A stretch of DNA of 51,251 bases, taken from positions 1-51,251 of the IMG/VR virus record IMGVR_UViG_2870495154_000004, one strand, 5' to 3'. The notes under the pieces were generated by a model. It saw only the letters and a list, made by a program, of their open reading frames with translations, ran no database searches and was not told the DNA's origin. Origin of the DNA: a virus (Duplodnaviria > Heunggongvirae > Uroviricota > Caudoviricetes). Shown one piece after another: positions 1-35,449 of the stretch. A program made the position numbers and the translations under genes. How positions within the stretch are numbered: the stretch's first letter is position 1; each line of letters starts with the position of its first letter.

Positions 1-249
1 TCATCTGATCTGTATCCAGCAGAGAAGGTCACTTAACAACCATCCGCAAGATTTCTTTCCGATAGACTTACGTGGTGGAAATGTTCCCTCCCGTTCAAGT
101 TTCCACGCTTGTGTACGAGAAATTGACGTGATCTCATATCGTTCCTTTTCACGTACCAGTCTGTCGCATTCAATCCCATAAGCTTTCAAAATGACCAGAC
201 GCTGTTCATCTGTTAATGGAAGCCACATACTACCCTCCTGATATATCAA
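1..249 (-). CDS. AlpA-like small DNA-binding regulator (phage/island transcriptional regulator family)
   Basis: 82-aa ORF; the C-terminal GWLLSDLLCWI segment resembles the AlpA/Xis-type HTH family; lies outside the prophage in AT-rich flank. Confidence 0.45.
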   Translation of the reverse strand: MIYQEGSMWLPLTDEQRLVILKAYGIECDRLVREKERYEITSISRTQAWKLEREGTFPPRKSIGKKSCGWLLSDLLCWIQIR

Positions 250-918: not shown

Positions 919-2550
919 ATGGTAACTCGGACAATGCAACAAAAGTATCAGTATGATCGTGTTTTATCCGGCGAACTCCACCCATTCCCTGGCATATACG
1001 AGGCGGTTTCCGAACAAATCCTTTTGCTCATTTTTAAAGCACGTCAACTATATCAGGATCCAGAATATCGCCCCTGGTTTGAAGAACAGCACAGAGTACT
1101 CTCTGCATTACGTGCCAATACAGAGCTCCTGAGAATCTTTAGAGAACAAAGAAGCGCTGAAGAACCAAAGCTTACTATTGAAGAGTCTACCTCCCCCCAA
1201 CCCACTCCTTCTGCTCTTACAGATGCGCTTAATGTGATGTGCCATTTATACAATGGTTTTGATGAAGGAAATATCAGTCTGAAAACTTGGGGGGCGATGC
1301 AAGAGGTACAGACAACATCAACCTTTATCAGCCCAGGAACGAGAACCTGGAAAACACCTGAACTGGCAAAGTTTGTAGGAGATGATTTATTTAATATTCT
1401 GACTGAATGTAAGGCCTGGAGTTCACCAATTCCAGCAGAAACCCGACAGGGGTATTGCCATCAGGATCTGTCTGTTGCGCACTCCTGCACCTCAGAGTTG
1501 CTGGCACACCTGAAGCAGTATCATGAAATAGATGAATCAACAATACTTGCCATAACAATTGGTCTGGCGGTTAACGAATTCTACCAGAATAAGCAAAATA
1601 TTCCAGAATGGCTTTCCTGTTTTGAGAATAAGAACAAATGGCCCTGGGACTGCAGGAAGTCAGATACTGAAGATGTGCACAGACTGAGAGAACGACTATC
1701 GATAATCGGATGTACAGAATTCGTAAAAAATATGTTTTCAGTCGCCAGTCAGCGTGAAATACAGACAATGTACAATATTTATGTCCATATTTATGCAGCT
1801 GAAATCTGTGGTTGGGTAAAAACAAGTATGGCGTATTTTAAACCAACAGATTTCATCCAGTACACATGGAAATTCGCAACAGTTACTCCGGATAAAGATG
1901 AAAAAACCGAGAATACGACCGCATGGGAAAGGGATTATTGTCAGATAACCATACAACGAGATGAACTCCTTAGATTGATTCGCACTAATACTCTGCAGGA
2001 TGCCGCAATTCATCTTTCAGGCTGCCTGCAATATGCATATCTGGAGTCAGTAAAGCATGATATTGACTATCCAGGAATAGCCCCTAATGCTGAAGAAAAG
2101 AAAATGAAACACACAGATTCTATTGAATTTTCTGGAATTCGGAATAACATCATAAATGCAGTAAAACGGCTAGAATCATTTGAAAAATGGTATGAAACTA
2201 ATAAAGTTTTGTTGGTAAGTAATAAAAAAATACGAACAGAGAAGATTGACGTTGTTGTACGACTTGCAGGACTGAAAGCCTATGATTTGCAGGAAGGGGT
2301 TCCGGAAGGTCTGAAATGGAAAGTTAAAGATGGCATAAATGAACGCATCAAAACCGATACCAGTTTATGCCTGCCTCAGGATATCAGTGATACATCGCTA
2401 AACCGTTATCGTCACGCTGTGACGCGCATTGTCAACAACGAAATCGACACATTACTGATGGAACAGAAGAAAAAAAATAAAAGATTCCCCTACAGCAAAG
2501 ATCGACATGCGATCCAACCTTTATGGAGCAAATGCTTGATCGAGCAGTAG
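919..2550 (+). CDS. hypothetical protein, 543 aa, no recognised domain
   Basis: long uninterrupted ORF preceded by about 670 bp of very AT-rich leader; no motif recognised by eye. Confidence 0.5.
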   Translation: MVTRTMQQKYQYDRVLSGELHPFPGIYEAVSEQILLLIFKARQLYQDPEYRPWFEEQHRVLSALRANTELLRIFREQRSAEEPKLTIEESTSPQPTPSALTDALNVMCHLYNGFDEGNISLKTWGAMQEVQTTSTFISPGTRTWKTPELAKFVGDDLFNILTECKAWSSPIPAETRQGYCHQDLSVAHSCTSELLAHLKQYHEIDESTILAITIGLAVNEFYQNKQNIPEWLSCFENKNKWPWDCRKSDTEDVHRLRERLSIIGCTEFVKNMFSVASQREIQTMYNIYVHIYAAEICGWVKTSMAYFKPTDFIQYTWKFATVTPDKDEKTENTTAWERDYCQITIQRDELLRLIRTNTLQDAAIHLSGCLQYAYLESVKHDIDYPGIAPNAEEKKMKHTDSIEFSGIRNNIINAVKRLESFEKWYETNKVLLVSNKKIRTEKIDVVVRLAGLKAYDLQEGVPEGLKWKVKDGINERIKTDTSLCLPQDISDTSLNRYRHAVTRIVNNEIDTLLMEQKKKNKRFPYSKDRHAIQPLWSKCLIEQ

Positions 2551-2642
2551 AGAACTGAGGGGATAACCGTTCTGTTATCCCCTGTTTATTCTGCCAACTC
2601 TCAGGTCTGTCAGAGTTCCAAGAACACGATGCGGCTGGCAAA

Positions 2643-3158
2643 TTATGCGGCTTTTCCATTAACAGATTCGGCCACAAGAACAACACCGTGTTTATTTCGA
2701 TCAGGATGTTCACTCCAGATTTCTGATACAGGAATACTTTCCCCGTCATAGCAGATCCGATCGCCATCAAACGGATAATACCGTGCGGAATCAGTATCTA
2801 AAATAAACACTTTCAGATTCGTTGAACGACGCGCTATATGCTACCAGAGGGCTTTACCTCCTTCATATTGCTCGTTATCACTTAATAGTATAACGCCCGC
2901 TTTTGTGGCTATCGTTTCATAAACAAACGTCGCAAGGCCAACATCACGTACAGCGCCATCGACAACAATCCCTTCAATCTGAGCAACGTCCTGTTCTTCC
3001 CAGAATTTCCGGACAAACACCCCTTCAAGCTGTGAACGACGCTGAAGCTCCAGAGTGGCAACAACCTTATGGCGAATATCACCATCAATAACAGAAGGTG
3101 CAGCTTCGATTACCGCAGCGAACGGAGTCTTTGGATCCCAGATGATCTGGTAAAGCAC
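2643..3158 (-). pseudogene. ORF interrupted by a single in-frame amber codon (105 aa + TAG + 66 aa in the same frame)
   Basis: 105-aa ORF ends at TAG (2841-2843); the same frame stays open for 66 more codons to a TAA at 2643-2645. Confidence 0.35.
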
Positions 3159-3531
3159 ACCCTGAATAGTTACTCCATCCAGTATCGAAAAAGACGAGCT
3201 ACAGTAGCAGGGGAGTAAGACATTGGAATGACAGCCATTTTATGGCCTAAAATTTGAAAACATTAGTATCAATACTGACCTCATCAGTCTGAGCATATAT
3301 TGATAAAGTTTTTATGTTTACACTCAATAAATACCTTGCCAAACAACTAATAGCGATGTCTACATTGCCATTCGACATGCTTACAATTTTTGTCAACAAG
3401 AAAGTCAATTTATATCAACGATAAGAAGTAAACACGAGGACACCAAAACCAAATGTACACACTTTTGTGCTTTGTGTCCCCTGTGTGTACCCAAATGACA
3501 AACTGCAAGAAAATCTAGGCACACACTTATC

Positions 3532-3594
3532 TAACTTATTGATTTAAATGGTGCCGATAATAGGAGTCGAACCTACGACCTTCGCATTACGAAT
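3532..3594. repeat. att core copy distal to int (63 bp; carries the 3' 46 nt of tRNA-Thr plus 17 bp)
   Basis: exact 63-bp direct repeat of 49791-49853; flanking sequence diverges on both sides. Confidence 0.85.
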
Positions 3595-4133
3595 TATAAG
3601 AATCCGCTTCTAATTCAAAGCATTACCCCATCAACACTGCGCTCACACGTCCCACCACATCAAAACATGTAAAGCCTTGCAAGCCATTGCGAGGCCTTAT
3701 ATGTCTCAGTTTTGTCCCACCTTGTATTACGACTTGCATAGCCAATGAAGATAAACGTAACGACAAACGGCACTGCAGTCTTCTTTTCTTTCACGACTTC
3801 CCCACACCCAGCATGCATACCTTTCTGCCACAACTGTAGTGAATGTCTGTTATGAGCGAAATATAGTCATTGACTACCGAATCTCTTTTCGCCGAAACGC
3901 GCTACTAAATAGCTAGCGCGTGCGCAATGGCACGTTAGTGCTGATATACGTCAGGAGTAAAGCGTGATGTAAATTTTTCTGATGAATTTTCAGAATGTAT
4001 CATCCGGGCTTACCGATGGCAGTGTCGTTTCGGCTCAAAAAGGTGTGAAATATAAATAGCAGCGCTGATGTTTAAATAATTATCAAGTCTGGCATGATGA
4101 GAGAGAAACTTAACTTATGCGAGGATCGCAAGT

Positions 4134-5504
4134 ATGCTGAATCTTATCGTTGTCGGAACCCCCAAATACTACACTTTTTTTTCTGAACCCAGTGGCAATG
4201 ACTCTTTCCCTGTGTCGCGACTCTTCGAATCCACGCCAGAGTCTCTTAGAAGCAGATTGCTTCCCCTGACTGAAAAAACCTATCATTTTCTTCAGGAACT
4301 GCCCGTTGTATTTATGTCCGAGCCGGAAATTGAATTCGATGAAGATAATGAAAAAATAGGTTATTTCAGCCACATCCGCTTAGGAAAAATCAGCAAGATA
4401 AGTACGTCCGTGTATAACAGAGAAAAAGTTTTAGCGTTTGATTATGAGATTACCAGTGATATCGGCTACAAGCCCTTAACCAGCGATAAAGAGTACGTAA
4501 GTGAGCTGGAGCTGGGCAGTTTCGGACTAAACAGAACGTTCTGGGCGGTCAAAGAGATTTCCGTAAATGAGATTCTGCGTGTTTTAGGCCTTGAAGGCTA
4601 TTCTAATGTTGAGCCCGCAGCAGCGAGTGCGGAAGCACCGGAGAATAATGAAGAACTAGAGATCATTGCGAATATCAATCAGTACTTGCAGGTGATACTC
4701 GATCATACACAGGGAAACGATGAAGAGGTATTTTACCGCGGTCACTCGGACATCAACTACCAACTGGAACCCTCACTGTTCCGCAAGGATACTCAGGGTA
4801 ACTATCGCTACCGCCATCACGAATCGGACATGATAACAGAGCTGCTGACCGTGCAGCCCGCCGAGTTCAAAGACGATCGGTATATGCTAGATAAACTCGT
4901 GCGCATGCAACACTATGGCCTACCCACACGCCTGCTTGATGTATCAACAAACCCCTTGATCGCACTATATTTTGCCTGCTCTAAAATCAAGCACGATGAA
5001 AATAATCATGAAATTGACGGGAACGTCATTATTCTGACGACGCCCAAAAGTGAAATTAAGTTTTTCGACTCGGATACCGTAAGTTGCATAGCCAATCTTT
5101 CCCGTCTTCCCTCTCGTTTCAAAAGCAGCCTGAAAACTAATCTCACCATTCCGGCGTTTAACGAATCTGAAGAGTGCGGACAACTACTACACCTGATCCG
5201 CGATGAAAAGTCCTATTTCAAAAGCATCATCGATCCGGTCCACCTAAGTAAAATTGTTGTGGTCAAAGGTCGGCTCAGTAACGCACGTATTTCGTCCCAA
5301 TCAGGCGCTTTCCTGCTCTTTGGTGAAAACGTAGACCTACCGGAAACGGGACTCAGTACGCTGAACATCAAAAAGCTTGTTATTAGAAACAAAGAGCATC
5401 TGATGCAGCAACTGAGCCGCCTTGGCATTAACGAAAGCACGGTGTACCCCGGCATTGAGAAGGCTGCTACGGAAATTGCAAAACTATACGATGGACGAAT
5501 CTGA
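4134..5504 (+). CDS. FRG-domain protein with an uncharacterised N-terminal domain
   Basis: 456-aa ORF; C-terminal half carries the FRG signature (VFYRGHSD...YQLEPSLFR...QHYGLPTRLLDVSTNPLIALYFAC); SD-like GAGGA upstream. Confidence 0.6.
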   Translation: MLNLIVVGTPKYYTFFSEPSGNDSFPVSRLFESTPESLRSRLLPLTEKTYHFLQELPVVFMSEPEIEFDEDNEKIGYFSHIRLGKISKISTSVYNREKVLAFDYEITSDIGYKPLTSDKEYVSELELGSFGLNRTFWAVKEISVNEILRVLGLEGYSNVEPAAASAEAPENNEELEIIANINQYLQVILDHTQGNDEEVFYRGHSDINYQLEPSLFRKDTQGNYRYRHHESDMITELLTVQPAEFKDDRYMLDKLVRMQHYGLPTRLLDVSTNPLIALYFACSKIKHDENNHEIDGNVIILTTPKSEIKFFDSDTVSCIANLSRLPSRFKSSLKTNLTIPAFNESEECGQLLHLIRDEKSYFKSIIDPVHLSKIVVVKGRLSNARISSQSGAFLLFGENVDLPETGLSTLNIKKLVIRNKEHLMQQLSRLGINESTVYPGIEKAATEIAKLYDGRI

Positions 5505-5645
5505 TAGCGCTTTAGTCGCACGGCACGCCTGTGTGCCAGCGTGGGCCCATAGCCGCTTTAATCGCCGTGCAGAATGCAGTTTTCAGGTAACTTCAGAGAA
5601 ACAAGTGATCTCATTTCGTTGTATTTATTAGCTGCGGAGTCATTA

Positions 5646-6698
5646 ATGGAAAGAATCAAGAGGAATCCCGAACGATTTGAAGCCTTTGAGCTTTTTTCCT
5701 CGTTGGGCCAGATCTATAATTACGATATTAAAAACCCCGAGCACCAGGATGACTTTATACAAAAGGTCACCACGTCATTAATCGCTTCCCATCAGAATCC
5801 AATTCTGCTGAACGGGAAAAGAATAGAAAACCTATTTAAACACGTTTGCGCCGCACTGAACCACTGCCAGTTTCTTAAACAGGAAGACGCCGGAGACTTG
5901 ATGTCAGCCGATCCCGATCTGGTGGCACCTGACTATCGCATTATACTGAAGGATCGCCGTCAGATCTTTGTGGAAGTAAAAAACTTTAACGCGGATGACG
6001 TGGCTGACGATTATCGCCTGAAGAAATCGTACAGTGATAAGGTTGAAAAGTACGGTGAGCTCCATGGTATTCCAGTTTATTATGCCATCTACATCAGGAT
6101 GCTGCGCCGGTGGGCGCTGGTTGCACGCTCCTCAATGAAGGAGCTAGAGCGTGAACATACCTTGACGCAGGCCTCGGCGCTCGCAAAAAGTGAGATGTAC
6201 CTGCTGGGCGACCTATCGATAGCAACAGAACCCGATCTGGTTTTTGAGCTTATCCCCGACCGGACCAAAGAAGTTTCAGTTAGTCCCGAAGGCATCGCCC
6301 ATTTTACAATTGGCGAGATTAAAATTTACTGCAATGACAGACAAGTAACGGATAAATTTGAAATGAACACGGCGTTTCATCTGATGCGCTACGGAGAGTG
6401 GCTCTGCCCCGGATCGGAGGCAATATTCACTGATGGTCAGCTTGAGAGCATCCGATACACATTTTCCCCGGAAGACGACGAAAATTACAAAAGACAGGGT
6501 TTCGACTTTATAGGTACGCTGAGTTCGCTGGTCACGTCGGCCTTTAACGAGCAGACTGTACACGACAGCCAGATCAGGTCAGTTGACACCCGGCAGAATG
6601 TCAGACTTTTCACGGTAACCATCCCTGATGATTACAAAGGGGGAGGCCTGCCTCTGTGGCGTTTCTCAATGCGGCCAAACTATGAATTTACCGATTAA
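5646..6698 (+). CDS. PD-(D/E)xK nuclease-fold protein (restriction-endonuclease-like) with an unknown C-terminal domain
   Basis: ORF with GGAG 6 nt upstream of ATG 5646 (track ORF opens at 5574); motif order E...PD...(14 aa)...EVK in APDYRIILKDRRQIFVEVK. Confidence 0.5.
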   Translation: MERIKRNPERFEAFELFSSLGQIYNYDIKNPEHQDDFIQKVTTSLIASHQNPILLNGKRIENLFKHVCAALNHCQFLKQEDAGDLMSADPDLVAPDYRIILKDRRQIFVEVKNFNADDVADDYRLKKSYSDKVEKYGELHGIPVYYAIYIRMLRRWALVARSSMKELEREHTLTQASALAKSEMYLLGDLSIATEPDLVFELIPDRTKEVSVSPEGIAHFTIGEIKIYCNDRQVTDKFEMNTAFHLMRYGEWLCPGSEAIFTDGQLESIRYTFSPEDDENYKRQGFDFIGTLSSLVTSAFNEQTVHDSQIRSVDTRQNVRLFTVTIPDDYKGGGLPLWRFSMRPNYEFTD

Positions 6699-7174
6699 GA
6701 GTAATAGTGAGACATTTAATCGGGATAAATCGCTCGATAATTCGTTGCTACTTCAACAACTTATAAATGAGAAGACCCAGCCTAATAACCTCACAATCAA
6801 CTTCATTGCGGATCCCCAAAGATAGACGGGCATAGGCGGCTTTTTATCACCTAAGCGTCAGCGCAACATAAATGATCGGGTCAATGGAATGACCTGTTCC
6901 CCGTTAAACAACACAGATGGTTGTTAGCCACTTCCGCACTTGGCATGACTTGTCCCACCGTTTGATACGTTACTATCTTAGTAATGTCCGCTTCTGGCAC
7001 GAAGCTATCGTAGGTTAGGCCCAAGGACAGCTTTAAGCGAGGAGCGGACGCTGAATTCGAATTCATCGTAAAAATTTTTATGGCCAAGTAGCTCTATAAG
7101 GCCTTTCATTAAAGCTATCTTTGTCGCAAAGCTTATGCAAAAAGTTACTTTATCTTTAAATCTAATAAGATAAC

Positions 7175-7990
7175 ATGATTGACGAAACCCCAAAATCAAC
7201 TTTACTTAAGCAAAAACGAGGCATGCAATTGAAAAAGATTAGGAAAATCAATAAAAAAATTATTGATGAATTGCTATCTCTTCGCGAATCAAGAGGAGCT
7301 ATAGAAGACTTCTCAATGTCTTTCCTACTAAATTTTGCAGAAAATTGTCGACTTATGCATTCACTTATTTCAACGAAAGATAAGAAAATAGATATTTATA
7401 AAACAGCATATCGACAATATTTTGTATTTCTAATCAGTTGCTGGGAAACATATTTTAGAGACGTTTTTGTTTTCGTGCATTCAGTTGATGAATCTAGAAT
7501 TACAACACTACTATCTAAAATGAGAACAGAAACATCTATCAATATAAACACTGAGATAAATCTATCAGAGTTATTGAGTAAAAGCTTTAACTTTCAAAAC
7601 TTAAACGACCTTGAAGAAGCATATAATGGCATGTGGGGTGAGAGTTTTTTAAACTACATATGTACAACTAATATATCTCCTTGCGGTCTGAGTGGCCAAA
7701 TTTCCCAAAGCTTATCGATAGAAAATATATTTCCAGACTGGAGAGCCCTCATAGAGGAAGCATTTTACATTAGGCACAAAGTGGTTCATGATGCAAACTT
7801 CAGACCTAAAGTCAACATTGAATTAATCAGTAAGGTAGAGGCTTTGTTTTTAATAATCCCACAATTTGCAACGCATATCATATCAGAAAGATTCAACTTA
7901 AAAAAAATCGTCATTTCAGATGGTAAAAATAACCATACCTATATTTTCAATATCAGTGATATATTATCTGATGATTGGGTTGTTAGTTGA
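7175..7990 (+). CDS. AT-rich hypothetical protein with HEPN-like Rx4H motif (candidate RNase / abortive-infection protein)
   Basis: 271-aa ORF in markedly AT-rich DNA; C-terminal motif YIRHKVVHD fits the HEPN Rx4-6H signature. Confidence 0.4.
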   Translation: MIDETPKSTLLKQKRGMQLKKIRKINKKIIDELLSLRESRGAIEDFSMSFLLNFAENCRLMHSLISTKDKKIDIYKTAYRQYFVFLISCWETYFRDVFVFVHSVDESRITTLLSKMRTETSININTEINLSELLSKSFNFQNLNDLEEAYNGMWGESFLNYICTTNISPCGLSGQISQSLSIENIFPDWRALIEEAFYIRHKVVHDANFRPKVNIELISKVEALFLIIPQFATHIISERFNLKKIVISDGKNNHTYIFNISDILSDDWVVS

Positions 7991-8229
7991 TGATGGGATT
8001 GTAAGTATATTAACACAAAAAACAAAGAATCTAATGAAGTCCGCTTCTGGCACATAGCAGCCATAGAGACAGTGGCGTAAAGTCATGGAGGATCGGTGGG
8101 AGGAGGTGCAAATCCTCTCATGCAAAAATATGTAAAATCGGTAGCAACTGGAAATCATTCAATACTCGCACTATCGGAAGTTCACCAGCCAACCGCAGCA
8201 CGTTCCTACATACGACGTGTCTGCGGTTT

Positions 8230-8584
8230 TCTTTTTCGCTTAGATTGTGTCTGGTTCTTTCGGCCACTCAATATCAGGTGCAGTTGATGTATCAACACGG
8301 TTCAGCAACACCCGATACTTTTTCCAGGCTTCCACCACCAGCACGACAAGATGCCGCATACAGTGACCCAGTCAGTCCAGTTTCCAGACAACCAGTGCGT
8401 CACCTTTTTGAAGGCGCTTTAAAGCGCGTTTTAATCCTGGTCGGTCTGTCTTTGTCCCGCTTAATTTATCTTCAAATATTTGTTCACATCCTGCACAAAC
8501 AAGAGCGTTTCGTTGCAGGTCTGTATTCTGGTCATTTGTTGATACCCTTACATAGCCAATCAGCACACTGAATCTCCCGTCCAA
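8230..8584 (-). pseudogene. pin: Pin/Gin-family serine DNA invertase remnant (frameshifted and truncated)
   Basis: first 70 aa ([23 protein letters not shown]...LVVWKLD) match Pin-type invertase N-terminus; premature TGA; invertase-like residues continue in another frame; C-terminal HTH missing. Confidence 0.65.
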
Positions 8585-8620
8585 AAGCGCAAATCATGCC
8601 ATGCAGGCCAGAAACGGCCA

Positions 8621-8648
8621 TTATCTAAAACCTCGGTTTACAGGAAAC
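8621..8648. other. gix/pix-like invertase crossover site (orphan)
   Basis: TTATCTAAAACCTCGGTTTACAGGAAAC resembles Gin/Pin recombination sites; lies about 55 bp upstream of the pin remnant. Confidence 0.5.
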
Positions 8649-8973
8649 GGTAAATCAGGCTTCTGGCGCATTACAGAAAAAACAGAACGGCGCAGATATT
8701 CCAGGAAAAGATACCTTCACCAAAAATATTGGTGCCTGCCGCGCATATAGCGCATGGCTGAATATTGGTGGCGATAGTCAGACCTGGACAACTGCACAAT
8801 TCATTTCGTGGCTGGAGAGTCAGGGGGCATTTAACCATCCTTATCATCCTTCCTCAAGTCGTTAATCGCGTGCGTAGCCAAACTCAATACATCAACATGT
8901 CGAAGCATGATCTGCCCTCCCATATACTGTTTTTATATACAGCGGTTGCACTTTAAAGGCAGATCAATAGCTG

Positions 8974-9801
8974 CTACGGAAAGGTAGACGGATTTGTTGG
9001 GATCGTGTCGCCATAGTACTTCCCGCCTGAACTGAATCGCCTGTTAAAGATATCCTGTTCAGACGCCGTGGCCTCTGCCATGGTCATACCTGCTGCAGTG
9101 AGATCGATAAAATGCCATCTGTAAAGGACGTATGAACGACACAAATTGTTCAGTAGCGTACCGAAACCGCTAGGTGACCCCCAAACCATATGGTCGTAGT
9201 AGGCAGTTGCGACAGCCATATCTGTGCCTGTTTTTGCTGACGCTTGAGATTTCAGGGCTGGATTACCCGTCAACCCTCCATCCAGACTGGCAATCAGCAA
9301 CTTATTATTAGATGGAGCTGAGTTATGCGACATCAACACTTCTACAGGGTTCTGGCTCGTCGATGACGGCTTATCTCGAGTAATACGATGATGCACAAAC
9401 ACTGCGAACTGATGATCATTCTGATGTGCAACAACGTACGGCAGGATGCCAGGGCAGCGGAACCGGGCCAGGTGGCCAGATACCTGATTGACCTGAGAGA
9501 CTATGCCATGAATACCAAGCTTTGGTGTTCTCTCAAACTTAACTTCAGTGCTACCAAGTGTGTTTGAATACTTAAAGGCCAAATCAGCCTGCGATACGCC
9601 AGTTAAAGTGGCGGCTGGAATCGCGGCTAAATTTGGCGTTGTCGATATATCAGTACCTGTCGCTGATAAATTAAAATTTTCATCTACTTCATAAGCATCC
9701 AGCAGCCCAAGAGACCCATCAGTTAACCCAGGGTACGGATAAAAAATAGGCATTCTTGAATCTGTAAAATTAGCTCCATATAAAGGATTGGCGCGGCCCA
9801 T
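8974..9801 (-). CDS. hypothetical protein downstream of the tail fibre gene (possible tail-fibre-associated protein; not Tfa-like)
   Basis: 275-aa ORF immediately following stf on the same strand; no motif recognised. Confidence 0.4.
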   Translation of the reverse strand: MGRANPLYGANFTDSRMPIFYPYPGLTDGSLGLLDAYEVDENFNLSATGTDISTTPNLAAIPAATLTGVSQADLAFKYSNTLGSTEVKFERTPKLGIHGIVSQVNQVSGHLARFRCPGILPYVVAHQNDHQFAVFVHHRITRDKPSSTSQNPVEVLMSHNSAPSNNKLLIASLDGGLTGNPALKSQASAKTGTDMAVATAYYDHMVWGSPSGFGTLLNNLCRSYVLYRWHFIDLTAAGMTMAEATASEQDIFNRRFSSGGKYYGDTIPTNPSTFP

Positions 9802-9811
9802 ATTTTACTCC

Positions 9812-12800
9812 TCAAAAGAAAAAGTTATTGTTAAGCATTCCTGCAAGACCTTCGCTGGATGATATTGTGGAAAAACCTGATCCACCATTCGCAAGCGCAA
9901 GACCACCTGTGTTACTAAGGTGTGTCCGGTCTATTGATTTTTCAGACCATACACCGCCATTATTGTAAATAATGTTTCCAACTGTTCCGCCACCTATCCT
10001 GATGTAGTAATCCATAGAACTACCACCAGTTGGTAATACTGTGTCACTCCATGTACCTTTGTATACCAGGTCGTTTGTTGTGAACCCTGTAAATGACCCG
10101 CCATTGAAAAATGACCAGGGTAGAACGCCATAAGTAACAGCAACTTGTTTTTCGGTCATGCCCGGGAAAGTAGGATCAATTGCGTCAGTAGCAGCAGAAA
10201 GCATATTTTGGTATACGTTAAAGAAACGTCCTGGAAATATTCTTCTGTACCATTCTCCAAGCTCGTAAAGAACACCCGTTTTAGCGTACTGGTCCTCATG
10301 CTGCTGTACAACAATTCTTGAACCGTTCCATGTCTCTGTCCTTTGCCCCATAATTGTCAGGAATATATATCTGGCATCCCTGGCCCCAACCAATGCAGCC
10401 ATTTCAATAGAATCCTGCCTGATTTGTGCAGCATTTAAATCAGTTGTCGGCTGGTTATTTTGTCCGTGCCAAAAGCAGATGACCTGTCCGGCATAATTAT
10501 CCCCGTTAACAAGAATTTCCTGCTTTAACATACCGAGGACCTGATCGGAAGTAGAGCCGCCATAGGAGCGGACCTCCCCGGGCACGCTCACCTCTGAAAG
10601 GATTTGGTTGCCGGAATTTCCACTGCCGAAAAGAGAATCCCCGATCAAGAGAAGCTTACTCCCAAGAGATTTACGGATTGTCGTCATCACCTGAGCTTTC
10701 AGCCTTACACCGACAGGGCCAGAGCTCTTATCAGAACGCCGAATTTCCCACTCGTCAGAGTTTTGACTACAACGTAGGCTGATAGAGCTGCCTGCAGCAA
10801 CAGTAACGGATGCCTGACCTGCTATGCGAATCCACGCGGAGCCATCCCAGAGAGCGTAATCTCCGGCAGAAAAACTATTTCCTGAAATGGTACCCGCTGC
10901 GGATGCCTGATAAACCGAATTACGCAGTGGACTAGCAGGATAACCAGAGGCAGGAGCAAACTCCCCTGCGTAAACCAGTGCATCACTGGCTGATGACAGC
11001 AATACCCATCGTGGAGTCATGGATGCGCCACCGGCAGTTTGCAGTCCTGTATAGAGCAATTTGTCCCCTGCCTGCAGCGCCATGCCGTTGAACGTCCCAG
11101 CAGCAGTCACCTCATACCAGCTGTCCGCGATTTTAATCACACCGGTGCCCGGCCCACGCTGGATGACGAACTCTGTACCATTCCAGACAAGATTGTCGCC
11201 GCAGTACAGGCTCTGACTGCCCCAGGTGCCCGGTAGTGTCTCGGAGAGGTTTCCGTTTGTGTTATAGGCCTCGTAGCTATAGTAATCACCGACAGCAAAC
11301 GTCCCTGTCGGCGTGGTAACTGCGGTGGTGAGAAACCGCCCTTTTTTCGTCAGCGATGGCACCGCGCCTGGCGTAAACACGCCAGCCCGCGCTTTCCCGG
11401 TGAACAGCAGCCCGCTGGCCTGCCGGTATTCAATCGCGGTGCCGGTCGCATTAATTCCGAATGCGGCCTTACACACATGCGACGGCAGCGGAGACCAGGC
11501 AGAGCCGTCGCGTGCATTGGTCCGCACCGCGATTTCGGAGAGCGTTGAGCGCGTTGCATCCGGGCGGGCATCTACAACATCCTGTGGGTGTGCAATAATT
11601 TTATTCTGTACATCTTCAGTCAGCGTTGAGAAGCCGACGATGTCATCACCCAACAGAAGACGAGAAATAAATACATCGCCATCTGTCGTCACATAGCTGG
11701 ACATCCGCTTTGTCACCGGATCATAGTCGACGCTGACATAACCAGTATCAGGGTCAAGGTCCAGTGGAATGACCTGCTGAACTTCTGTGGAAAGTTGTGA
11801 GTTCCCGACGCTATTCTCAGGGACCTGTAGCAAGGGAATAAAAACCTGTCCATCCGTTGTGGTATATGAAGACATACGTCTGGTTACCGGATCGTAGTTG
11901 ATTTCTGAAAACCCAGTATCAGGGTCCAGTTCCTGAGATAAAATACTTTGAACATCCAGCGAAAGTTTTTCTGAGCTTACTGAGCCATTTTGAATATTAT
12001 TTCCAGTGACTGCATTTTCAGATAATTGCAGCAAAGGGATAAACACACGACCATCACGCATAGTGAACTTAGACATGCGCATGGAAACTGGGTCATATTC
12101 AACATCAACAATATCGAGACCATCATCCAGCTCAGTTGAGATTAATCCCCTTGATGCAAGATCATCAATATACCCCTTGGAAATCATTACCCGGCCAGTG
12201 GCAGATAATATCCCTGAATTATTGATAACTTCTATTGCAAGATATTTGTAATCGGAGTCTCGGTAATAAGCTGTTGACCCAACAGGAATATTGCCAGCAT
12301 CTGCGTCTGCCTGTGCCGCCGCCAGCGTCGGAAACTCGCGGATTGTCCCAGTTATAGCCGCTGTGCCTGGCTCAGAAGCCTGCAACACAGCTACGCCATC
12401 CTGGTTCTCGTAGGTTTTGAATGCCGCCGTCGCTTCCGGACCTTCCGCTACGCGGAACGACTGTCCGTTGGTCGTAGCAGCAAGGCCTGCAATTGTACCG
12501 TCCGGATCGCTCGGCGTTTTATAGAACGTGAACTTATTCAGCGCATATTCAGAAGCATTGCTCGCGAACTCTTCGGCCTGAGAGGCAGAAATAGCAGCCT
12601 CTGCCGTGTTCTGTGCCACCGCGGACGCGTTACGCGCCACTTCTTCCACCATCAGCTCAAAACGGCGCAGTGCCTCCGGACGGGCATCATCCTCCGTCAT
12701 GGCACCGAGAAAATCATTCAGCGTACCGGGTCGGGAATCTTCATACACGGTGATAATTCCGGCATGTGACGGCGGGAATCCCTCCACCAACAGAATAACG

Positions 12801-12982
12801 CTGTACTGACCGTACTCAACGTCCATACTGTAACGCCCGGCTTCATCCGGATTTTCTGAGGCCACCGTGTTCGCCACCACCGTGGTGCTGTTACGTTTTG
12901 CTTTCAGCTGGATTGTGCAGTTCTGTACCGGTTTACCTGCACCGTCTTTCAGTACACCTGAAATCTTTACTGCCATATTCAC
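9812..12982 (-). CDS. stf: side tail fibre protein, lambda Stf-like N-terminus, three internal tandem repeats, C-terminal GDSL/SGNH-like hydrolase motif
   Basis: first ~120 aa match lambda Stf; three ~35-aa repeats (DYDPVTxRMSSYxTTDGxVFIPLLQ); motif LLLIGDSLFGSGNS near residue 780. Confidence 0.8.
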   Translation of the reverse strand: MNMAVKISGVLKDGAGKPVQNCTIQLKAKRNSTTVVANTVASENPDEAGRYSMDVEYGQYSVILLVEGFPPSHAGIITVYEDSRPGTLNDFLGAMTEDDARPEALRRFELMVEEVARNASAVAQNTAEAAISASQAEEFASNASEYALNKFTFYKTPSDPDGTIAGLAATTNGQSFRVAEGPEATAAFKTYENQDGVAVLQASEPGTAAITGTIREFPTLAAAQADADAGNIPVGSTAYYRDSDYKYLAIEVINNSGILSATGRVMISKGYIDDLASRGLISTELDDGLDIVDVEYDPVSMRMSKFTMRDGRVFIPLLQLSENAVTGNNIQNGSVSSEKLSLDVQSILSQELDPDTGFSEINYDPVTRRMSSYTTTDGQVFIPLLQVPENSVGNSQLSTEVQQVIPLDLDPDTGYVSVDYDPVTKRMSSYVTTDGDVFISRLLLGDDIVGFSTLTEDVQNKIIAHPQDVVDARPDATRSTLSEIAVRTNARDGSAWSPLPSHVCKAAFGINATGTAIEYRQASGLLFTGKARAGVFTPGAVPSLTKKGRFLTTAVTTPTGTFAVGDYYSYEAYNTNGNLSETLPGTWGSQSLYCGDNLVWNGTEFVIQRGPGTGVIKIADSWYEVTAAGTFNGMALQAGDKLLYTGLQTAGGASMTPRWVLLSSASDALVYAGEFAPASGYPASPLRNSVYQASAAGTISGNSFSAGDYALWDGSAWIRIAGQASVTVAAGSSISLRCSQNSDEWEIRRSDKSSGPVGVRLKAQVMTTIRKSLGSKLLLIGDSLFGSGNSGNQILSEVSVPGEVRSYGGSTSDQVLGMLKQEILVNGDNYAGQVICFWHGQNNQPTTDLNAAQIRQDSIEMAALVGARDARYIFLTIMGQRTETWNGSRIVVQQHEDQYAKTGVLYELGEWYRRIFPGRFFNVYQNMLSAATDAIDPTFPGMTEKQVAVTYGVLPWSFFNGGSFTGFTTNDLVYKGTWSDTVLPTGGSSMDYYIRIGGGTVGNIIYNNGGVWSEKSIDRTHLSNTGGLALANGGSGFSTISSSEGLAGMLNNNFFF

Positions 12983-13040
12983 CCCACAAAAAAGCCCGCC
13001 TGAACCAGCGGGCTGTCATAACACTGTGTTACCTGGCTAA

Positions 13041-13640
13041 TCAGAACTTATAACCGACACCCACGATGAAACCGTCAGTGCGCCAGTCGCCACTGCCGGA
13101 GCCTTCATAAGCAATATCAATGGCCACGGATTCGGTCGGGTTAAACTGCACGCCAGCCCCCCACGCCAGAGACGTGTTGCTGCGGCGACCATCATCACTT
13201 CCGGTCAGCACTTCGTGCGTTTTCCCCTTGTTGTCAGTTACGCGGAGATAATCCCCGGAGAAAGTCGAAATACGGCTGTAAGCCACACCCGCCATCGCAT
13301 ACGCGCTGAACCATTCATTCACGCGCACAGACGGCCCCGCCATCACGCTGAACCAGCGGTTACGCACGGAATCTTCATGCCAGCGGGTATCGCTGTAACG
13401 GGTAAGCTGGCGATTCTTGTCTTCTGCATAGCTGAATGACGTCACCATCCCCAGCGTGTCCGTAAACTCATAACGGTATTTCATGTTAATCCCGTTAAGA
13501 TCATCGCTGCCGGGAACGTTCGTCGAGGCATGAAGATACCCCGCGCTTAGCGTGGACTGATGTTCAGACGCCCATGCAGGCGCACCGGATACGACCAGAC
13601 AGATGGCTGCGGACAAAATGGCTGCACAAACTTTACGCAT
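13041..13640 (-). CDS. lom: Lom/Ail family outer-membrane protein
   Basis: 199 aa with signal peptide; C-terminal [23 protein letters not shown] matches lambda Lom. Confidence 0.85.
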
Positions 13641-13710
13641 AATTACCTCTCGCTTTTCTGCAATAAAAAAGGCGTCATTCCTGACGCCCTTTATTGGGGT
13701 TATAAATATT

Positions 13711-16700
13711 TCAACGAATACTGATGCCGGAAGCAGCCTTTTTGGTCACAATCACCGTACAGTCGGTGATATTGCCTGCCCCCTGATTGCCTTTCTGGAA
13801 AATCTTAAACTCCAGAGTGACGCTTCCCCTGCCACTCGGCATATCAATAACCGCACTGTAACTACCGGGAATGGCCCCTTTAGTTTCTCTGGATGCGATT
13901 AATACGCCGTTTTTGCGAACTTCAAAACCATACCCCGTGTACCTTGTACCTCCCGGGTTATTACCACTTCCCGGATCGTCATACGCTATACCGTTAAAGA
14001 TAATGGGCGGAATAATGATTTGACGGTCAAAGTTATGATCATCACTGATGGTGACTGTAACCGTCCCGTCTGGTGTTTCCGTGTTACCCCACGTACCAGC
14101 CTGTTTCGGAAATGATTTGGATACAGCTTTAACGAAGTCACCTCTGACCTGAGTCGCCTCCAGCATGCCCTTAATCGTACAGTTTTCATTTACCGTGACA
14201 TTGTTGAGCGTCCCGGAGTTCGCATTCACACTACCACTGATATCCGCATTTTTAGCGGTCAGCTTTCCGTCCGGTGTCAGGGAAAATACCGGAGGACTGC
14301 CACCGCTGGTAATGGTGGGGGCCGTCAGGCGCTTCAGGAACACGTCGTTCATGAATATCTGGTTGCCCTGCGCCACAAACATCGGCGTTTCATTCCCGTT
14401 TGCCGGGTCAATAAACGCGATACGGTTAGCGGCAACCAGAAACTGGCTCAGTTTGCCTTCCTCCGTGTCCTCCATGCTGAGGCCAATACCCGCGACATAA
14501 TGTTTGCCGTCTTTGGTCTGCTCAATTTTGACAGCCCACATGGCATTCCACTTATCACTGGCGTCCTTCCACTCTTTCGAAAACTCCTCCAGTCTGCTGG
14601 CGTTATCCTCCGTCAGCTCGACTTTTTCCAGCAGCTCCTTGCCGAGATGGGATTCGGTTATCTTGCCTTTGAAAAAATCCAGGTAACCTTCCGCATCATC
14701 GCTCGCCCGACCGACGGCCTCCACGAATGCCGATTTGCCAACGGTGTTCACACTGCGGATATAAAAGTAATAATCATGGCCCGGTTTGATATTGATACTG
14801 GCGGCTATCCAGTACAGCCCCGTGCCAAGGTAGCGGGCTGTGGTTTCAACCTGCCTGATATCGGTAATCCGCTTTTCCGAGAACCAGAACTCAAACTGTA
14901 CCGTCGGATCGTAAACCGCAAGATGCGGCGTGGCGGTTATCTGAAAATAGCCCGGCGTCAGCTCAATCCGCGACGGCGCTGCCGGTGCGGCAATCCGGAA
15001 CGATACCGATGCCGGATCGCCCTGCTGTCCCCACGCATTTACCGCCCGGACCGTCAGCGTGTAACGCCCCAGCGCCAGTTGCCTGAAGCGGTATGTGGTT
15101 TCCGTCGTCCGGGCCGTGCTGACCAGCCGCTCACTGCCGTCATCCGCTGCCACGGTCAGGCGAAGCAGGAAGCTCACGCCCTTCACCACCTTCGGCGTGT
15201 CCCAGCGGGCCAGTACCTGATACTCCCCGCTGTCTGCGGTGACTTCGGCAGTCAGGTGCTGCACCGCTGGCGGCGTGACACCATTTACCGTGCCGCTCTG
15301 GTCGCCGTCAAAGTGCGCCCCGTTATCCACGATGGCCTCTTTTTCCGGTACATGCTGCACGGCGGTGATGGCATACGTGCCGTCGTCGTTCTCACGGATA
15401 CTCACGCAGCGGAACAGGCGCTGGCGCAACGTCGGCAGCTTCAGCCCCCATACGCTGTATTCAGCAACGCCGTCAGGAACACGGCTCACTTTCACCTTCA
15501 CGCCGTCGGTGACGGACTGAACCTCCACGCTGACCGGACTCCCCTGCCCGTCAACCAGGCTTATCAGCGTGGTACCGGAGGATGGCAGCGTGATTTCACG
15601 GTCGAGCGTCAGCGTCCGGGTCTGGCTGTTCACCGCCAGCACGCGACCACCGGTGCTGATACCGGCATAGTCATCATCGCAGATTTCAATGACATCGCCC
15701 GGTACATGGCGAAGCCCTTCTGCGCCCACGCTGAAGTCCACGGTCTGCGTCTCCAGCAGTTCCGTTTTAATCAGCCACAGCCCGGCGCGGTGTGCCTGCC
15801 CCCGGCTGGTACAGCCAAAGGCATCCATCTTCGTGACATTACGACCATAACGGGCAATGGCCTGCGTATCTTCAACAAGCTCTGTCGCCGTCTCCCAGCC
15901 GTTGTTCGGGTCAATCCAGTTCACCTCAACGGCATTATGGCGGTCCTTCAGGGCGCTGAAACTGTAGCGGAACGGCGCGCCATCATCCGGCATCACCACA
16001 TTACTGCGGTTATAGGTCCACACCTTATCTGATGGTCGGTCCTGCACGAACGTCAGCGTCTGCCCGTTCCATACCGGCATACAGCGCATCGCCGAGCAGA
16101 AATCACTGAGCACATCCCACGCCTTACGCTGTGTGGTCAGGTACGCATTACAGGTAATGCGCGGCTCCGTGCCGCCAAAGCCGTCCGGCACCGACTGGTC
16201 GCAGTACTGGCCGATGACATACAGCGCCCATTTATCCACATCCGCCGCACCAAGACGTTTCCCCATGCCGTAGCGCGGATGGGTCAGCATATCCCACAGA
16301 CACCAGGCCATGTTGTTGCTGTATGCTGGTTTTAACGTTCCGTCCCAGATACCGCTGTATTGTCGCGTCTGCGGGTTATAGTTCGACGGCACCTGCAGAA
16401 TGCGCCCGCGCAGATGATAATTACGGCTCACCTGCTGGCTACCGAACTGCTCCGAGTCCACCTGTACGCCGACCAGTGCCGTGTTCGGGTAGCACTGTTT
16501 CACATCGATGATTTCGGTGTATGACGACCAGAGCGTTTTGTTCTGCAGCTGGTCTGTGGTGCTGTCCGGCGTCATCCTGCGCATCCGGATATTAAACGGG
16601 CGCGGCGGCAGGTTATCCACCACCACCGAGGCCAGATACTGCGAGGTGGTTTTGCCTTTAATGGTGATGTCTTTTTCCGTCACCCAGCCACCATTACGCT

Positions 16701-17124
16701 GTATCTGAACCAGCAGGCGGACTTCCGACGGATTCCGGTCACCCTTTGAGGTGGTTTCCACCAGTGCCTGCACACCGAAGGTAAAGCGCAGACGGTCGAT
16801 GTTTGCCGACGTGATGGTGCGGGTGATCGGCGTGTCATATTTCACTTCCGTACCCAGCACAGTCTCGGAGCCGGAGGATTCAAAACCTTCCGGCGGTGTC
16901 TGCTCCTGCTCACCTGCCCGGAACACCACCGTGACGCCGGAGATGTTGGTATTCCCCTCACTGTCCAGCACCGGCGTACTGTTCAGCAGCACGCTTTTTA
17001 ATCCATCTACCGGACCTTCAACCGGCCCTTCGCTGATGGCATCGATCACACTCAGCAACTGCGTGGACTTCAGGTTGTCCTTCGCTTCGCGCGGGGTATG
17101 CCCCTTACTGCTTCCTTTACCCAT
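13711..17124 (-). CDS. J: tail tip / host specificity protein J
   Basis: 1137-aa ORF, lambda J-like throughout, correct position after I. Confidence 0.9.
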
Positions 17125-17184
17125 TCCTCACGCTCCATAAATGACAAAACCGCCCGCAGGCGGTTTCACATAAAACATTTTGCA

Positions 17185-17856
17185 TCAGCGACCAATCACC
17201 ACAACCTGACCACCGTCCCCTTCGTCTGCCGTGCTGATCTCCTGAGAAACCACACGTGATCCCACGCGCATTTCACCGTACAGAACGGGCAGAACATTGC
17301 CCTGGGCAACCATGTTATCCAGTGAGGAGAAATAGGTGTTTTGTTTGCCGTTATCCGTTGTCTGTGTACGGGGAGTTCTGGCTTTCGGTGCCAGCATCTG
17401 GGCCACACCACCGAGCACCATACTGGCACCGAGAGAAAACAGGATGCCGGTCATACCACCGGCCCCAATGGCTGCCCCCCATGCTGCAAGGGTGGCTCCG
17501 GCGGTAAAGAATGATCCGGCAATGGCGGCAGCCCCCAGGACAATCTGGAATACGCCACCTGACTTGGCCCCGGCGACTCTGGGAACAATATGAATCACAG
17601 CGCCATCAGGCAGAGTCTCATGTAACTGCGCCGTTAACCCGGACGTGCTGACGTCCCGCCCGGCAATCCGTACCTGATACCAGCCGTCGCTCAGTTTCTG
17701 ACGAAACGCCGGGAGCTGTGTGGCCAGTGCCCGGATGGCTTCAGCCCCCGTTTTCACACGAAGGTCGATGCGGCGACCAAATCGTTGTAAATCCCCGTAA
17801 AGGCAGATGCGCGCCATGCCCGGTGACGCCAGAGGGAGTGTGTGCGTCGCTGCCAT
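17185..17856 (-). CDS. I: tail assembly protein I
   Basis: 223 aa, lambda I-like. Confidence 0.85.
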   Translation of the reverse strand: MAATHTLPLASPGMARICLYGDLQRFGRRIDLRVKTGAEAIRALATQLPAFRQKLSDGWYQVRIAGRDVSTSGLTAQLHETLPDGAVIHIVPRVAGAKSGGVFQIVLGAAAIAGSFFTAGATLAAWGAAIGAGGMTGILFSLGASMVLGGVAQMLAPKARTPRTQTTDNGKQNTYFSSLDNMVAQGNVLPVLYGEMRVGSRVVSQEISTADEGDGGQVVVIGR

Positions 17857-18497
17857 TTGTCGGTGTACCTCTCTCGTTTGCTCAGTTGTTCAGGAATATG
17901 GTGCAGCAGCTCGCCGTCGCCGCAGTAAATTGCGGCGTGATTCGGCACTGATGAACCAAAACAGCACAGCAGCACATCGCCCGGCTGTGCCGCTGACAAC
18001 GGCACCTGATACAGCCCCGTCGCCTCCAGATTATCCAGATAGAGATTCTGGCCGTTACGCCACCAGTCATCCTCACGATGAAAGTCCGGCATCTCAATCC
18101 CCGCCAGATGATAAGCATCCCGGAACAGTGTGTAACAGTCCGTCACACCGTGCTCAAAGCGCCGCCCGGTGAGATGCGGCACACAGCGGAACTTATGAAT
18201 CGTCCCCCGGCAGACCAGCCACCACGGCAAATCACTCTGCACCTGCAGCCGCCGGTCGGCCTCACTCAGCCAGGGCAGACCACCGGGGTGGCTGTGGACC
18301 AGCGCCACAATCTCACCCTGCATCTCTGCCTGCAGCCAGTCCTCCGGAGCCATCCGGAAATAATCCTCCGGCTCACCGGAAATATTCACGCAGGGAAAAT
18401 ATCTTTCCCCCTCCGGCGCTCTCACCACGAAGCCGCACGACTCCGCTGGCGCACATCGCCGGGCGTGCGCCAGAATCGCTGATTCTGTCTCTGTCAT
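17754..18497 (-). CDS. K: tail assembly protein K (NlpC/P60-like)
   Basis: lambda K-like from MTETESAIL; track ORF has an N-terminal extension. Confidence 0.85.
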   Translation of the reverse strand: MTETESAILAHARRCAPAESCGFVVRAPEGERYFPCVNISGEPEDYFRMAPEDWLQAEMQGEIVALVHSHPGGLPWLSEADRRLQVQSDLPWWLVCRGTIHKFRCVPHLTGRRFEHGVTDCYTLFRDAYHLAGIEMPDFHREDDWWRNGQNLYLDNLEATGLYQVPLSAAQPGDVLLCCFGSSVPNHAAIYCGDGELLHHIPEQLSKRERYTDKWQRRTHSLWRHRAWRASAFTGIYNDLVAASTFV

Positions 18498-18501
18498 GGG
18501 T

Positions 18502-19200
18502 TTACTGCGAAAGTTTGTTAATGGAAAGGAAGCCGCCAAAGTTGCCGACGTTATTGCGAAACTTACAGCCGCTCAGGCATTTGCTGCATTTATCCTTCGT
18601 GATATCGGACGTTGGCTGGTCATATTCATCCGCGACCGCCGGACCGTGATAACCGCACTCATCGCCGCGATAGGTCCAGGTGCAGGTGTTGGCCAGCATG
18701 ATACGTCCCGGAAAAACAGCGCCGTCCGTTTCCGTCGGCGTGGACAGTACAAAAGAGGCACTCACCGCGCTCAGTTCGCTGCACTGCTCAATGCGCCAGC
18801 GGCTGATCACCTCCTGCTCCGGATCGGCGTCACTGTTTCCGTTGACGAAGTTCACCGCATCCAGAAAACAGGCGTAAACCTTACGCCGGACCACCGTTCC
18901 GCCGACCAGACTCTGCAGATCTTCCGCCATCCCGGTGACCATACCGTACAGGTTAGAAACCGTCAGCGTGGGGCGCGTACTGGTGCCTTTGCCATTCAGT
19001 TCAAAACCACTCCCCTGAATGGGATACGGCTGATACTGTCGCCCCTGCCAGGTGACCGGCTCACCTTTTTCGTTCTGCTCATTACAGAAAAAATAACGTT
19101 CTCCACCGACCTCTGTCAGGTCGATTTCCCAGAGCACCACGCTGGCCGACTGCTCCGCACGGGTGCATTCATTCAGTGTTTCCTGTCGGATATCCTGCAT
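18502..19200 (-). CDS. L: minor tail protein L
   Basis: 232 aa, lambda L-like. Confidence 0.9.
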   Translation of the reverse strand: MQDIRQETLNECTRAEQSASVVLWEIDLTEVGGERYFFCNEQNEKGEPVTWQGRQYQPYPIQGSGFELNGKGTSTRPTLTVSNLYGMVTGMAEDLQSLVGGTVVRRKVYACFLDAVNFVNGNSDADPEQEVISRWRIEQCSELSAVSASFVLSTPTETDGAVFPGRIMLANTCTWTYRGDECGYHGPAVADEYDQPTSDITKDKCSKCLSGCKFRNNVGNFGGFLSINKLSQ

Positions 19201-19529
19201 CAGTTCACCACCTGTTCAAACTCTGCGCTGAACTCAACACGCAACATACTGACCCGCGACGACCATTTTGCGCAGGTCACCTTTATCTGCCGGTAGCCAT
19301 AAGGCGGCGTCCACAGAAAGGATTTCCAGCCCCCGTGCTCAGCCAGAAACGACTCCAGCGCCGCGGCCTCCCAACGGGAGACAGACAGCGTCACGCTGTA
19401 CGTTTTCAGGTCAGCGTTCAGCCCGGCAGGCGCTCGCTGGGAATAGCCATCACCAAAGCGCACCTTTCTTACGGAAGGGGCCGAAGCCACATCCATACCG
19501 GGTTTCACTTTCCAGCGGAAGGTTTTCAT
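19200..19529 (-). CDS. M: minor tail protein M
   Basis: 109 aa, lambda M-like. Confidence 0.9.
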   Translation of the reverse strand: MKTFRWKVKPGMDVASAPSVRKVRFGDGYSQRAPAGLNADLKTYSVTLSVSRWEAAALESFLAEHGGWKSFLWTPPYGYRQIKVTCAKWSSRVSMLRVEFSAEFEQVVN

Positions 19530-22105: not shown

Positions 22106-22532
22106 ACCGGACTCCTCCTGCGATCCCTTCTGATACTGTCATCAGCATTACGTCATCCTCCGTCATGTCCGCCACATCCGGGGAAGCGGGGATAACTTCA
22201 TTCCCGTCCGGGCCAAAACGAACGCCTCCGGCAAGCCCTGCCGCTTTCTGCATCAGCACATCATCTTCAGGCTCTTCGTCAGCCTCGCGCCGGTTCAGCA
22301 GACTGAAATCCAGCGGATGCATATCCGGATCGCTGAAAAACAGGCTGAGCACGGTGTACGTCAGCCCGGAAAAGTGCATATCCAGCAGAACATCATGAAA
22401 ATAATGGGTACTGTAAAAGCGGTGCCAGTCGGCATACTCCGTGGATGACATCCCGGCAAGCATGGCACGCCAGTCGGGTCGCCCCATCTCACGCGCCAGT
22501 TTCAGGGCAAAACTCAGCTCACCGTCGAACAC
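22098..22532 (-). CDS. T: tail assembly chaperone T frame (made as G-T fusion by -1 frameshift)
   Basis: ORF in -1 frame relative to G beginning VFDGELSFALK as in lambda gpGT; slippery site just upstream. Confidence 0.8.
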   Translation of the reverse strand: MFDGELSFALKLAREMGRPDWRAMLAGMSSTEYADWHRFYSTHYFHDVLLDMHFSGLTYTVLSLFFSDPDMHPLDFSLLNRREADEEPEDDVLMQKAAGLAGGVRFGPDGNEVIPASPDVADMTEDDVMLMTVSEGIAGGVRYG

Positions 22533-22936
22533 TTTCCCGCAGAAACAGGCTCTGCAGGCCCGGCGTCCTCTGTCTGTTCAGGGGTATTATTCACAACAAA
22601 CTCATACATACCAGACAGCCGGTACACCACGTTTTCAGCATGAGAAATTGCCTCCGTGGGCCAGGTGGTAAGCACTTCCTGCTCAATCTGTTTAACGGCT
22701 TCATTCATGGACGGCATCTGCGTCTTCTGCGGATGGTTATGCCACAGGGACATCGCCACCAGAAACGCGCCGGTTCTGATGGCGTCTTCCACAGTAAACT
22801 TCCGGTTGCTGTCTGACTCCGCCTGTTCTGCCTGCCGTTTCATCAGGGCGAGATGCTCAATACGCTGCAGGGCTGACAGTTCAGAAAGCGTGACGGTCAC
22901 ACCGTTATGTTCAAATGATTCGGTTTTCAGGAACAT
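22514..22936 (-). CDS. G: tail assembly chaperone G
   Basis: 140 aa, lambda G-like. Confidence 0.9.
   Translation of the reverse strand: MFLKTESFEHNGVTVTLSELSALQRIEHLALMKRQAEQAESDSNRKFTVEDAIRTGAFLVAMSLWHNHPQKTQMPSMNEAVKQIEQEVLTTWPTEAISHAENVVYRLSGMYEFVVNNTPEQTEDAGPAEPVSAGKCSTVS
22532..22538 (-). promoter_or_regulatory. programmed -1 ribosomal frameshift slippery heptamer G GGA AAG (G to G-T)
   Basis: minus-strand GGGAAAG, in G frame as G GGA AAG at codons G133-K134. Confidence 0.8.
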
Positions 22937-22951
22937 CGCTGACTCTCCGGA

Positions 22952-23692
22952 TTAACTGGCGGTGACGGTGATTTCTGCAACCGCAGCAAACTCACCATTA
23001 CCGGATACGACCGGAATGTTGACCTTACCTGCAGCAACGCCATTCACGGTGATGGTCATACCACTGACCGACACGGTGGCTTTTGTTTTATCCGCTGACA
23101 CCGCACGGAAGCTCTTGTCGGTTGCGCCTTCCGGCTGGAATGCCACGGTCAGCGTGGTGCTCTTCCCTTTCACTACGGAAGCGCTGGCTGGCGTCACGGT
23201 CATACCGGTTGCCGCTGTTACCGTGCTGCGATCTTCTGCCATCGACGGACGTCCCACATTGGTGACTTTCACCGTACGGGTGATCACTTCCTTCGCCGTC
23301 ACCGCCTTACCGATACTGCTGACCCAGCCACGGAACACATCGACCGTGCCGTTCGGGAAGCGGATTTTATAGGCACGGGTATCGCCTTCATTAAACCACG
23401 CCAGCAGCGCCTGCTGCCCCTGCTCTCCGGGCATCCACGCCAGCGTGAAGCTGGTATCTCCGGCAGATTTCTGCCCCTGCCTGGTCGCGGTCCAGTCTGC
23501 ATCTTCATCATCGAGATAGCTGTCGTCATAGGACTCAGCGGTCAGTTCGCCGGGCGTCAGGTCTTTAACTTTAGCCAGACGCGACCAGTCAACGTCTGAA
23601 AGCGGGTTCGCATAAGGGTCACCGTTCCCCTTATAAACCCACAGGGTGGTCCCGGCCCCTTTCACCGGCATTACTGGATTTGGTACAGGCAT
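22952..23692 (-). CDS. V: major tail tube protein V
   Basis: lambda V-like from MPVPNP; Ig-like C-terminal region. Confidence 0.9.
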
Positions 23693-23699
23693 ATCGTCC

Positions 23700-24670: not shown

Positions 24671-24681
24671 ACATCCCCCTT

Positions 24682-25035: not shown

Positions 25036-25046
25036 AGCGCCTCCCG

Positions 25047-25442: not shown

Positions 25443-25483
25443 GGATTCCTCCACAGAGAGAAAATGGCCCCGAAGGGCCATGA

Positions 25484-26509: not shown

Positions 26510-26564
26510 AAAAAAATCCCGTAAAAAAAGCCGCACAGGCGGCCTTTAGTGATGAAGGGTCATG

Positions 26565-26897: not shown

Positions 26898-26906
26898 AAA
26901 CATCCC

Positions 26907-28226: not shown

Positions 28227-31907
<3,681 letters not shown>

Positions 31908-31933
<26 letters not shown>

Positions 31934-35445: not shown

Positions 35446-35449
35446 TGAA

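Follow-up and report, generated by a model that had tools for sequence, protein, structure and literature searches.

The 51,251-nucleotide window analyzed here (i.e., the whole stretch, taken from IMG/VR record IMGVR_UViG_2870495154_000004) is Escherichia coli chromosomal DNA. The gene in question is a small accessory gene of a genomic island, the reading frame of which is interrupted by a minus-strand TAG codon (2843 to 2841; the plus strand reads cta at 2841 to 2843). Past the TAG, another 65 sense codons precede an in-frame TAA (2645 to 2643, minus strand); upstream of the TAG, the frame is open from a GTG at 3158 and further in the 5' direction. The list of open reading frames shows the locus as two pieces (i.e., 2841..3158, encoding 105 amino acids from the GTG, and 2643..2810, encoding 55 amino acids), while the true gene, as judged from intact alleles, comprises 198 codons from an ATG (3238 to 3236, minus strand). 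An original prediction, made from the sequence alone, had described an otherwise continuous frame of about 172 codons, with 66 codons past the TAG. That the TAG splits a real gene is borne out by the sequence, but the codons past it number 65, the length had been counted from GTG 3158, and the native frame is shifted by a 1-nucleotide deletion in codon 16 that had been missed. The coordinates of these and the surrounding features are given in Table 1.

We aligned the window with the alleles of strains CREC-532, 19-5, and 2-1 and with the intact alleles of strains 2014C-4423 and A20. The TAG corresponds to a CAG (codon 133, Gln) after a single C-to-T transition at window position 2843 (minus strand), and this codon directly follows the invariant Trp132. 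Relative to the intact alleles, one G is missing between positions 3193 and 3192 (codon 16); it is a lone G adjoining a T run and not part of a homopolymer. Because of this deletion, the frame read from the native ATG stops at a TAA (3172 to 3170) after 22 codons. The window copy retains approximately 98 to 99% nucleotide identity to the intact alleles (WP_001325785.1 and WP_000268401.1), and the changes found only in the window are E171V (GAA to GTA, beyond the stop) and four silent changes. Strain 19-5 carries the TAG without the deletion and has three other substitutions in common with the window; thus, the nonsense mutation came first and the frameshift later. The allele alignment places the TAG before the split of the window's lineage from strain 19-5. 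Of the "recent nonsense mutation" originally proposed, the nonsense character stands (CAG in intact alleles), while "recent" has to be qualified, with the frameshift, the four silent changes, and E171V all acquired since that split.

Table 1. Features of the window discussed in the text, with strand and basis where available
Feature	Coordinates	Strand	Basis or remark
Whole pseudogene	2643..3238	-	596 bases versus 597 in the intact gene (198 codons plus stop); GNAT-fold, phrog_7522
Native ATG start	3236..3238	-	Same start as the annotated intact coding sequence in strains 2-1, 2014C-4423, and A20
1-nucleotide deletion site, codon 16, -1 frameshift	3192..3193	-	CGTCGTTTTT to CGTCTTTTT; allele alignment
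TAA reached after 22 codons in the shifted frame from the native ATG	3170..3172	-	MAVIPMSYSPATVARLFRYWME, then stop; read from the sequence
Amber TAG for CAG (Gln133)	2841..2843	-	Allele alignment; exact 61-mers in genomes
65 codons past the amber codon (residues 134 to 198)	2646..2840	-	Homologue alignments, model
GTA (Val) for GAA (Glu171)	2727..2729	-	Window's lineage only, all other alleles Glu; past the stop
Original TAA stop	2643..2645	-	Same stop as the intact gene
GC-rich hairpin plus T run, terminator-like	2558..2583	+	Consensus scan only
543-amino-acid gene	919..2550	+	Convergent with the pseudogene
AlpA-type regulator	1..249	-	Window edge; Pfam Phage_AlpA, E = 2e-13
63-base direct repeat, two copies	3532..3594 and 49791..49853		3' part of tRNA-Thr thrW plus 17 bases
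Prophage insertion	3595..49790		Approximately 46.2 kb
Far-end prophage cargo	4134..7990	+	
tRNA-Thr(CGT), thrW	49808..49883		
proA	49998..51251		

Over the 741 bases surrounding the feature, the window is 100% identical to the chromosomes of CREC-532 and three further E. coli strains, and the locus is found at an identity of at least 90% in 693 of 5,426 complete E. coli genomes. The exact 61-mer centered on the TAG occurs in 27 of the 5,426 genomes, and the same 61-mer with CAG is exact in 164. The deletion is present in 26 of the 27 TAG genomes, which the 741-base query matched without a length difference; strain 19-5, the sole TAG genome without the deletion, is one base longer, as are the intact alleles. 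The shortened products are also on record: the 105-amino-acid product (window type) from 184 public contigs and the 132-amino-acid product (amber only) from 17, with at least 1,000 and 636 contigs for the two intact alleles. The pseudogene status of the locus is already known, in that RefSeq flags the identical locus of CREC-532 as a pseudogene ("frameshifted; internal stop"). The note for strain 19-5 is "internal stop" only, and strain 2-1 is annotated with an intact 198-amino-acid coding sequence (WP_001325785.1).

Stop-to-stop intervals of at least 65 codons constitute 6.8% of all such intervals in the six frames of the window. Since an open stretch of this length is unexceptional, the case for the tail as coding sequence rests on homology. 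In alignment, the 65 codons past the TAG correspond one to one with the residues that form the C-terminal third of the intact 198-amino-acid proteins. A search for relatives among 1.84 billion representative proteins yielded 189; the full-length ones (196 to 224 amino acids) are alignable through residue ~190, and broken family members (P0122, P0123, P0127, P0140, and P0141) have breaks at about residues 52, 99, 129, and 151. The comparison with orthologues that had been proposed as a check of the original prediction supports it: position 133 is a sense codon, mostly for Gln or Lys, in all full-length homologues (alignments of 30 and 52), and no full-length orthologue ends at the position of the TAG, the outcome that had been named as grounds for treating the downstream frame as fortuitous. 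Invariant residues flank codon 133 on both sides (Q87, Y107, S120, D121, W132, Y164, and W175), and G166 is nearly invariant in the 52 homologues. Between the chromosomal intact allele and the allele of the P1-like phage-plasmid SJ46, the synonymous divergence (dS) is about 1.6 to 1.9 (i.e., synonymous sites are near saturation), and the ratio of nonsynonymous to synonymous divergence (dN/dS) is 0.035 for codons 1 to 132 and 0.040 for codons 134 to 198. These values indicate that codons 134 to 198 are real coding sequence under purifying selection in the family. The shorter database relatives are copies that were frameshifted or truncated independently, at various sites other than that of the TAG, which suggests that genes of this family decay often, through repeated independent inactivation in other lineages.

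The intact protein matches the PHROG family phrog_7522 over its full length (E = 1.3e-126). This family is uncharacterized; some E. coli copies are named N-acetyltransferase and others "hypothetical protein." A structure model of the intact protein has the GNAT alpha/beta fold. In GNAT proteins, motif A, (Q/R)-x-x-G-x-(G/A), binds the pyrophosphate of acetyl-CoA, and the protein has such a motif (RDVGLA, residues 98 to 103) after the strand at residues 84 to 93 and at the start of the helix at residues 102 to 113. Across the family, G101 of this motif hardly varies, and position 98 is often R or Q. The sequence searches with the 198-amino-acid protein were less telling: Pfam Acetyltransf_1 stayed below threshold (E = 0.055; 14.2 bits versus a cut-off of 20.7), NCBIfam gave nothing meaningful (one match, E = 0.085), a PDB sequence search returned nothing below E = 0.2, and PADLOC found no defense-profile match for this protein or for its 543-amino-acid neighbor. 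The fold and the motif make the intact protein a putative acyl-CoA-dependent acyltransferase. The amber codon falls in helix alpha4 (residues 126 to 138 of the model) and, according to the model and the alignment, removes the strands at residues 142 to 148 and 186 to 192, the conserved loop at residues 149 to 185, and the invariant Tyr164 and Trp175. In the model, it thus takes away the last third of the GNAT fold, and loss of function would be the natural consequence of the lost strands and loop.

We are highly confident that the locus is an ordinary decaying pseudogene, hit twice, of a 198-amino-acid accessory gene in an old island at the thrW tRNA-Thr site. A C-to-T change would first have turned the CAG of Gln133 into an amber codon, cutting the protein inside helix alpha4. 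In the clone of the window, the loss of a G in codon 16 would then have left ribosomes starting at the native ATG to stop after 22 codons, and E171V would have been gained in a tail that was by then untranslated, so that no functional product is to be expected. The gene itself would be dispensable cargo of mobile elements. Nothing that we found contradicts the pseudogene reading, to which the following caveats apply. A restart at GTG 3158 could give the 105-amino-acid fragment that gene callers predict. Among the window-specific substitutions, four are silent and one is missense, a ratio that does not resemble free drift, with the limits that such low counts carry little weight and that the SJ46 allele has two of the same silent states.

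It is also conceivable, though very unlikely, that the family is a phage or island accessory acyltransferase involved in phage-host conflict, and that its loss from chromosomes reflects selection against the gene, with the window copy as one example. The GNAT-fold family is common to P1-like phage-plasmids, islands of the integrase-AlpA-YfjI type, and scattered enterobacterial chromosomes.

A still useful shortened protein, i.e., an N-terminal fragment acting like PmgF of phage P1 (which resembles only residues 4 to 66 of the family), is highly improbable. A short form does exist in a working phage, given that PmgF (98 amino acids) matches only the N-terminal third of the family (43% identity). 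However, P1 pmgF was scored non-essential in a CRISPR interference (CRISPRi) screen (PMC10695390), which leaves the short form without a demonstrated function; the codon-16 frameshift removes exactly that N-terminal stretch from the native-ATG frame; and the many independent broken copies in the databases look like general decay.

Programmed read-through or recoding of the TAG, by a suppressor tRNA or with a non-standard amino acid, would give a full-length protein, and the frame is indeed open for 65 codons past the stop. This explanation is scarcely credible, however: the ancestral codon is a plain CAG in at least 164 genomes, a stop at that position is seen in no homologue, there is no suppressor tRNA gene in the window, an Rfam scan of positions 2400 to 4200 detected no known RNA element, and translation initiated at the native ATG is already out of the frame of the TAG because of the upstream frameshift. 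A promoter and terminator scan found only the hairpin between the genes. That this genome in fact carries an intact gene that was misread in sequencing or assembly, an error that the original prediction had allowed for, has a negligible probability; single-base errors do occur in assemblies and nothing more specific favors it, while the TAG 61-mer is present in 27 complete genomes assembled independently in different laboratories and from different hosts and countries, the deletion is present in 26 of them and did not affect a homopolymer, and shortened products are recorded from 184 and 17 public contigs. Since both lesions recur across genomes, they are inherited alleles of one clone, spread over several countries and hosts, rather than sequencing errors.

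The pseudogene lies approximately 294 bases outside the distal copy of a 63-base direct repeat, within the older island. The two copies bracket an insertion that strains 19-5 and 2-1 lack and that is a complete lambdoid prophage, from integrase to tail fiber plus cargo, according to the RefSeq annotation of an identical genome; its integrase adjoins thrW, and it also has genes for head, tail, and lysis together with lom. At its far end, the prophage carries cargo comprising an FRG-domain protein with a match to the PADLOC candidate defense family PDC-S15 (E = 8e-99), a 374-amino-acid protein without a match, and a 271-amino-acid protein with a sub-threshold match to RiboL-PSP HEPN (25.9 bits versus a cut-off of 28.4). 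From these matches, the cargo is a possible defense-gene cluster.

In E. coli, the gene belongs to a module composed of an integrase (in some cases), the 198-amino-acid gene, a convergent hypothetical gene of ~540 codons, an AlpA-type regulator, and a YfjI-family protein. One site of the module is thrW; another is adjacent to nfeF, where the integrase is intact. The window gene is placed as the intact copies are, relative to the thrW attachment (att) repeat and to the convergent 543-amino-acid gene, from which it is separated by a 92-base spacer containing the terminator-like hairpin. The 543-amino-acid gene is intact here and has an internal stop in strain 19-5; searches of Pfam, NCBIfam, PHROGs, and PADLOC gave no match for its product. 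Two different E. coli islands (i.e., at thrW and next to nfeF) carry it together with the 198-amino-acid gene. Because the 543-amino-acid gene is convergent and is absent from the phage-plasmid copies, we do not treat the two genes as one system. Beyond the AlpA-type regulator at the window edge, the matching RefSeq genome has a DUF3987 fragment, followed by YfjI-family and inovirus Gp2-type genes, an arrangement like that of a CP4-57-like island, which in this case lacks an integrase of its own. Three distant homologues stand alone in unrelated neighborhoods, with no conserved partner gene among them. A GNAT toxin of a type II toxin-antitoxin system (TacT/AtaT type) was considered and rejected, as no antitoxin-like partner gene was present in any context examined.

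The locus matters little in itself, being yet another accessory gene in decay on an E. coli island. Gene callers split it into spurious short proteins (e.g., the 105-amino-acid fragment recorded from public contigs), and the pair of lesions offers a convenient clonal marker for the lineage carrying both. The remaining biology concerns what the intact PmgF-related proteins of the GNAT-fold family do, which is not addressable from a dead copy.

The closest counterparts of the window gene are the intact E. coli alleles WP_001325785.1 and WP_000268401.1, which have the same length, start, stop, and island module and lack the three changes of the window (i.e., Gln133 to amber, the codon-16 deletion, and E171V). 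Compared with the GNAT superfamily at large, phrog_7522 has an extra beta-rich N-terminal part and the long loop at residues 149 to 185, and the sequence profiles of the superfamily stay below threshold for its protein. In the P1-like phage-plasmid SJ46, gp016, which has a homologue in RCS47, shows 88% amino acid identity over all 198 residues; it is intact and is annotated as 12 codons longer at the N terminus. Unlike the window gene, the SJ46 and RCS47 copies have a phage-plasmid setting, after a gene annotated as bplB and without the 543-amino-acid neighbor. PmgF of P1 ("putative morphogenetic function") is encoded in the same slot after bplB as SJ46 gp016 (compared loci: P1 pmgF, L005, 3995 to 4291; SJ46 gp016, L004, 4965 to 5597). 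Residues 3 to 67 of PmgF are 43% identical to the N terminus of the family, and the GNAT core and the C terminus are missing. On this comparison, P1 PmgF is probably a truncated remnant of a GNAT-fold family of 198 to 210 amino acids rather than a morphogenesis protein.
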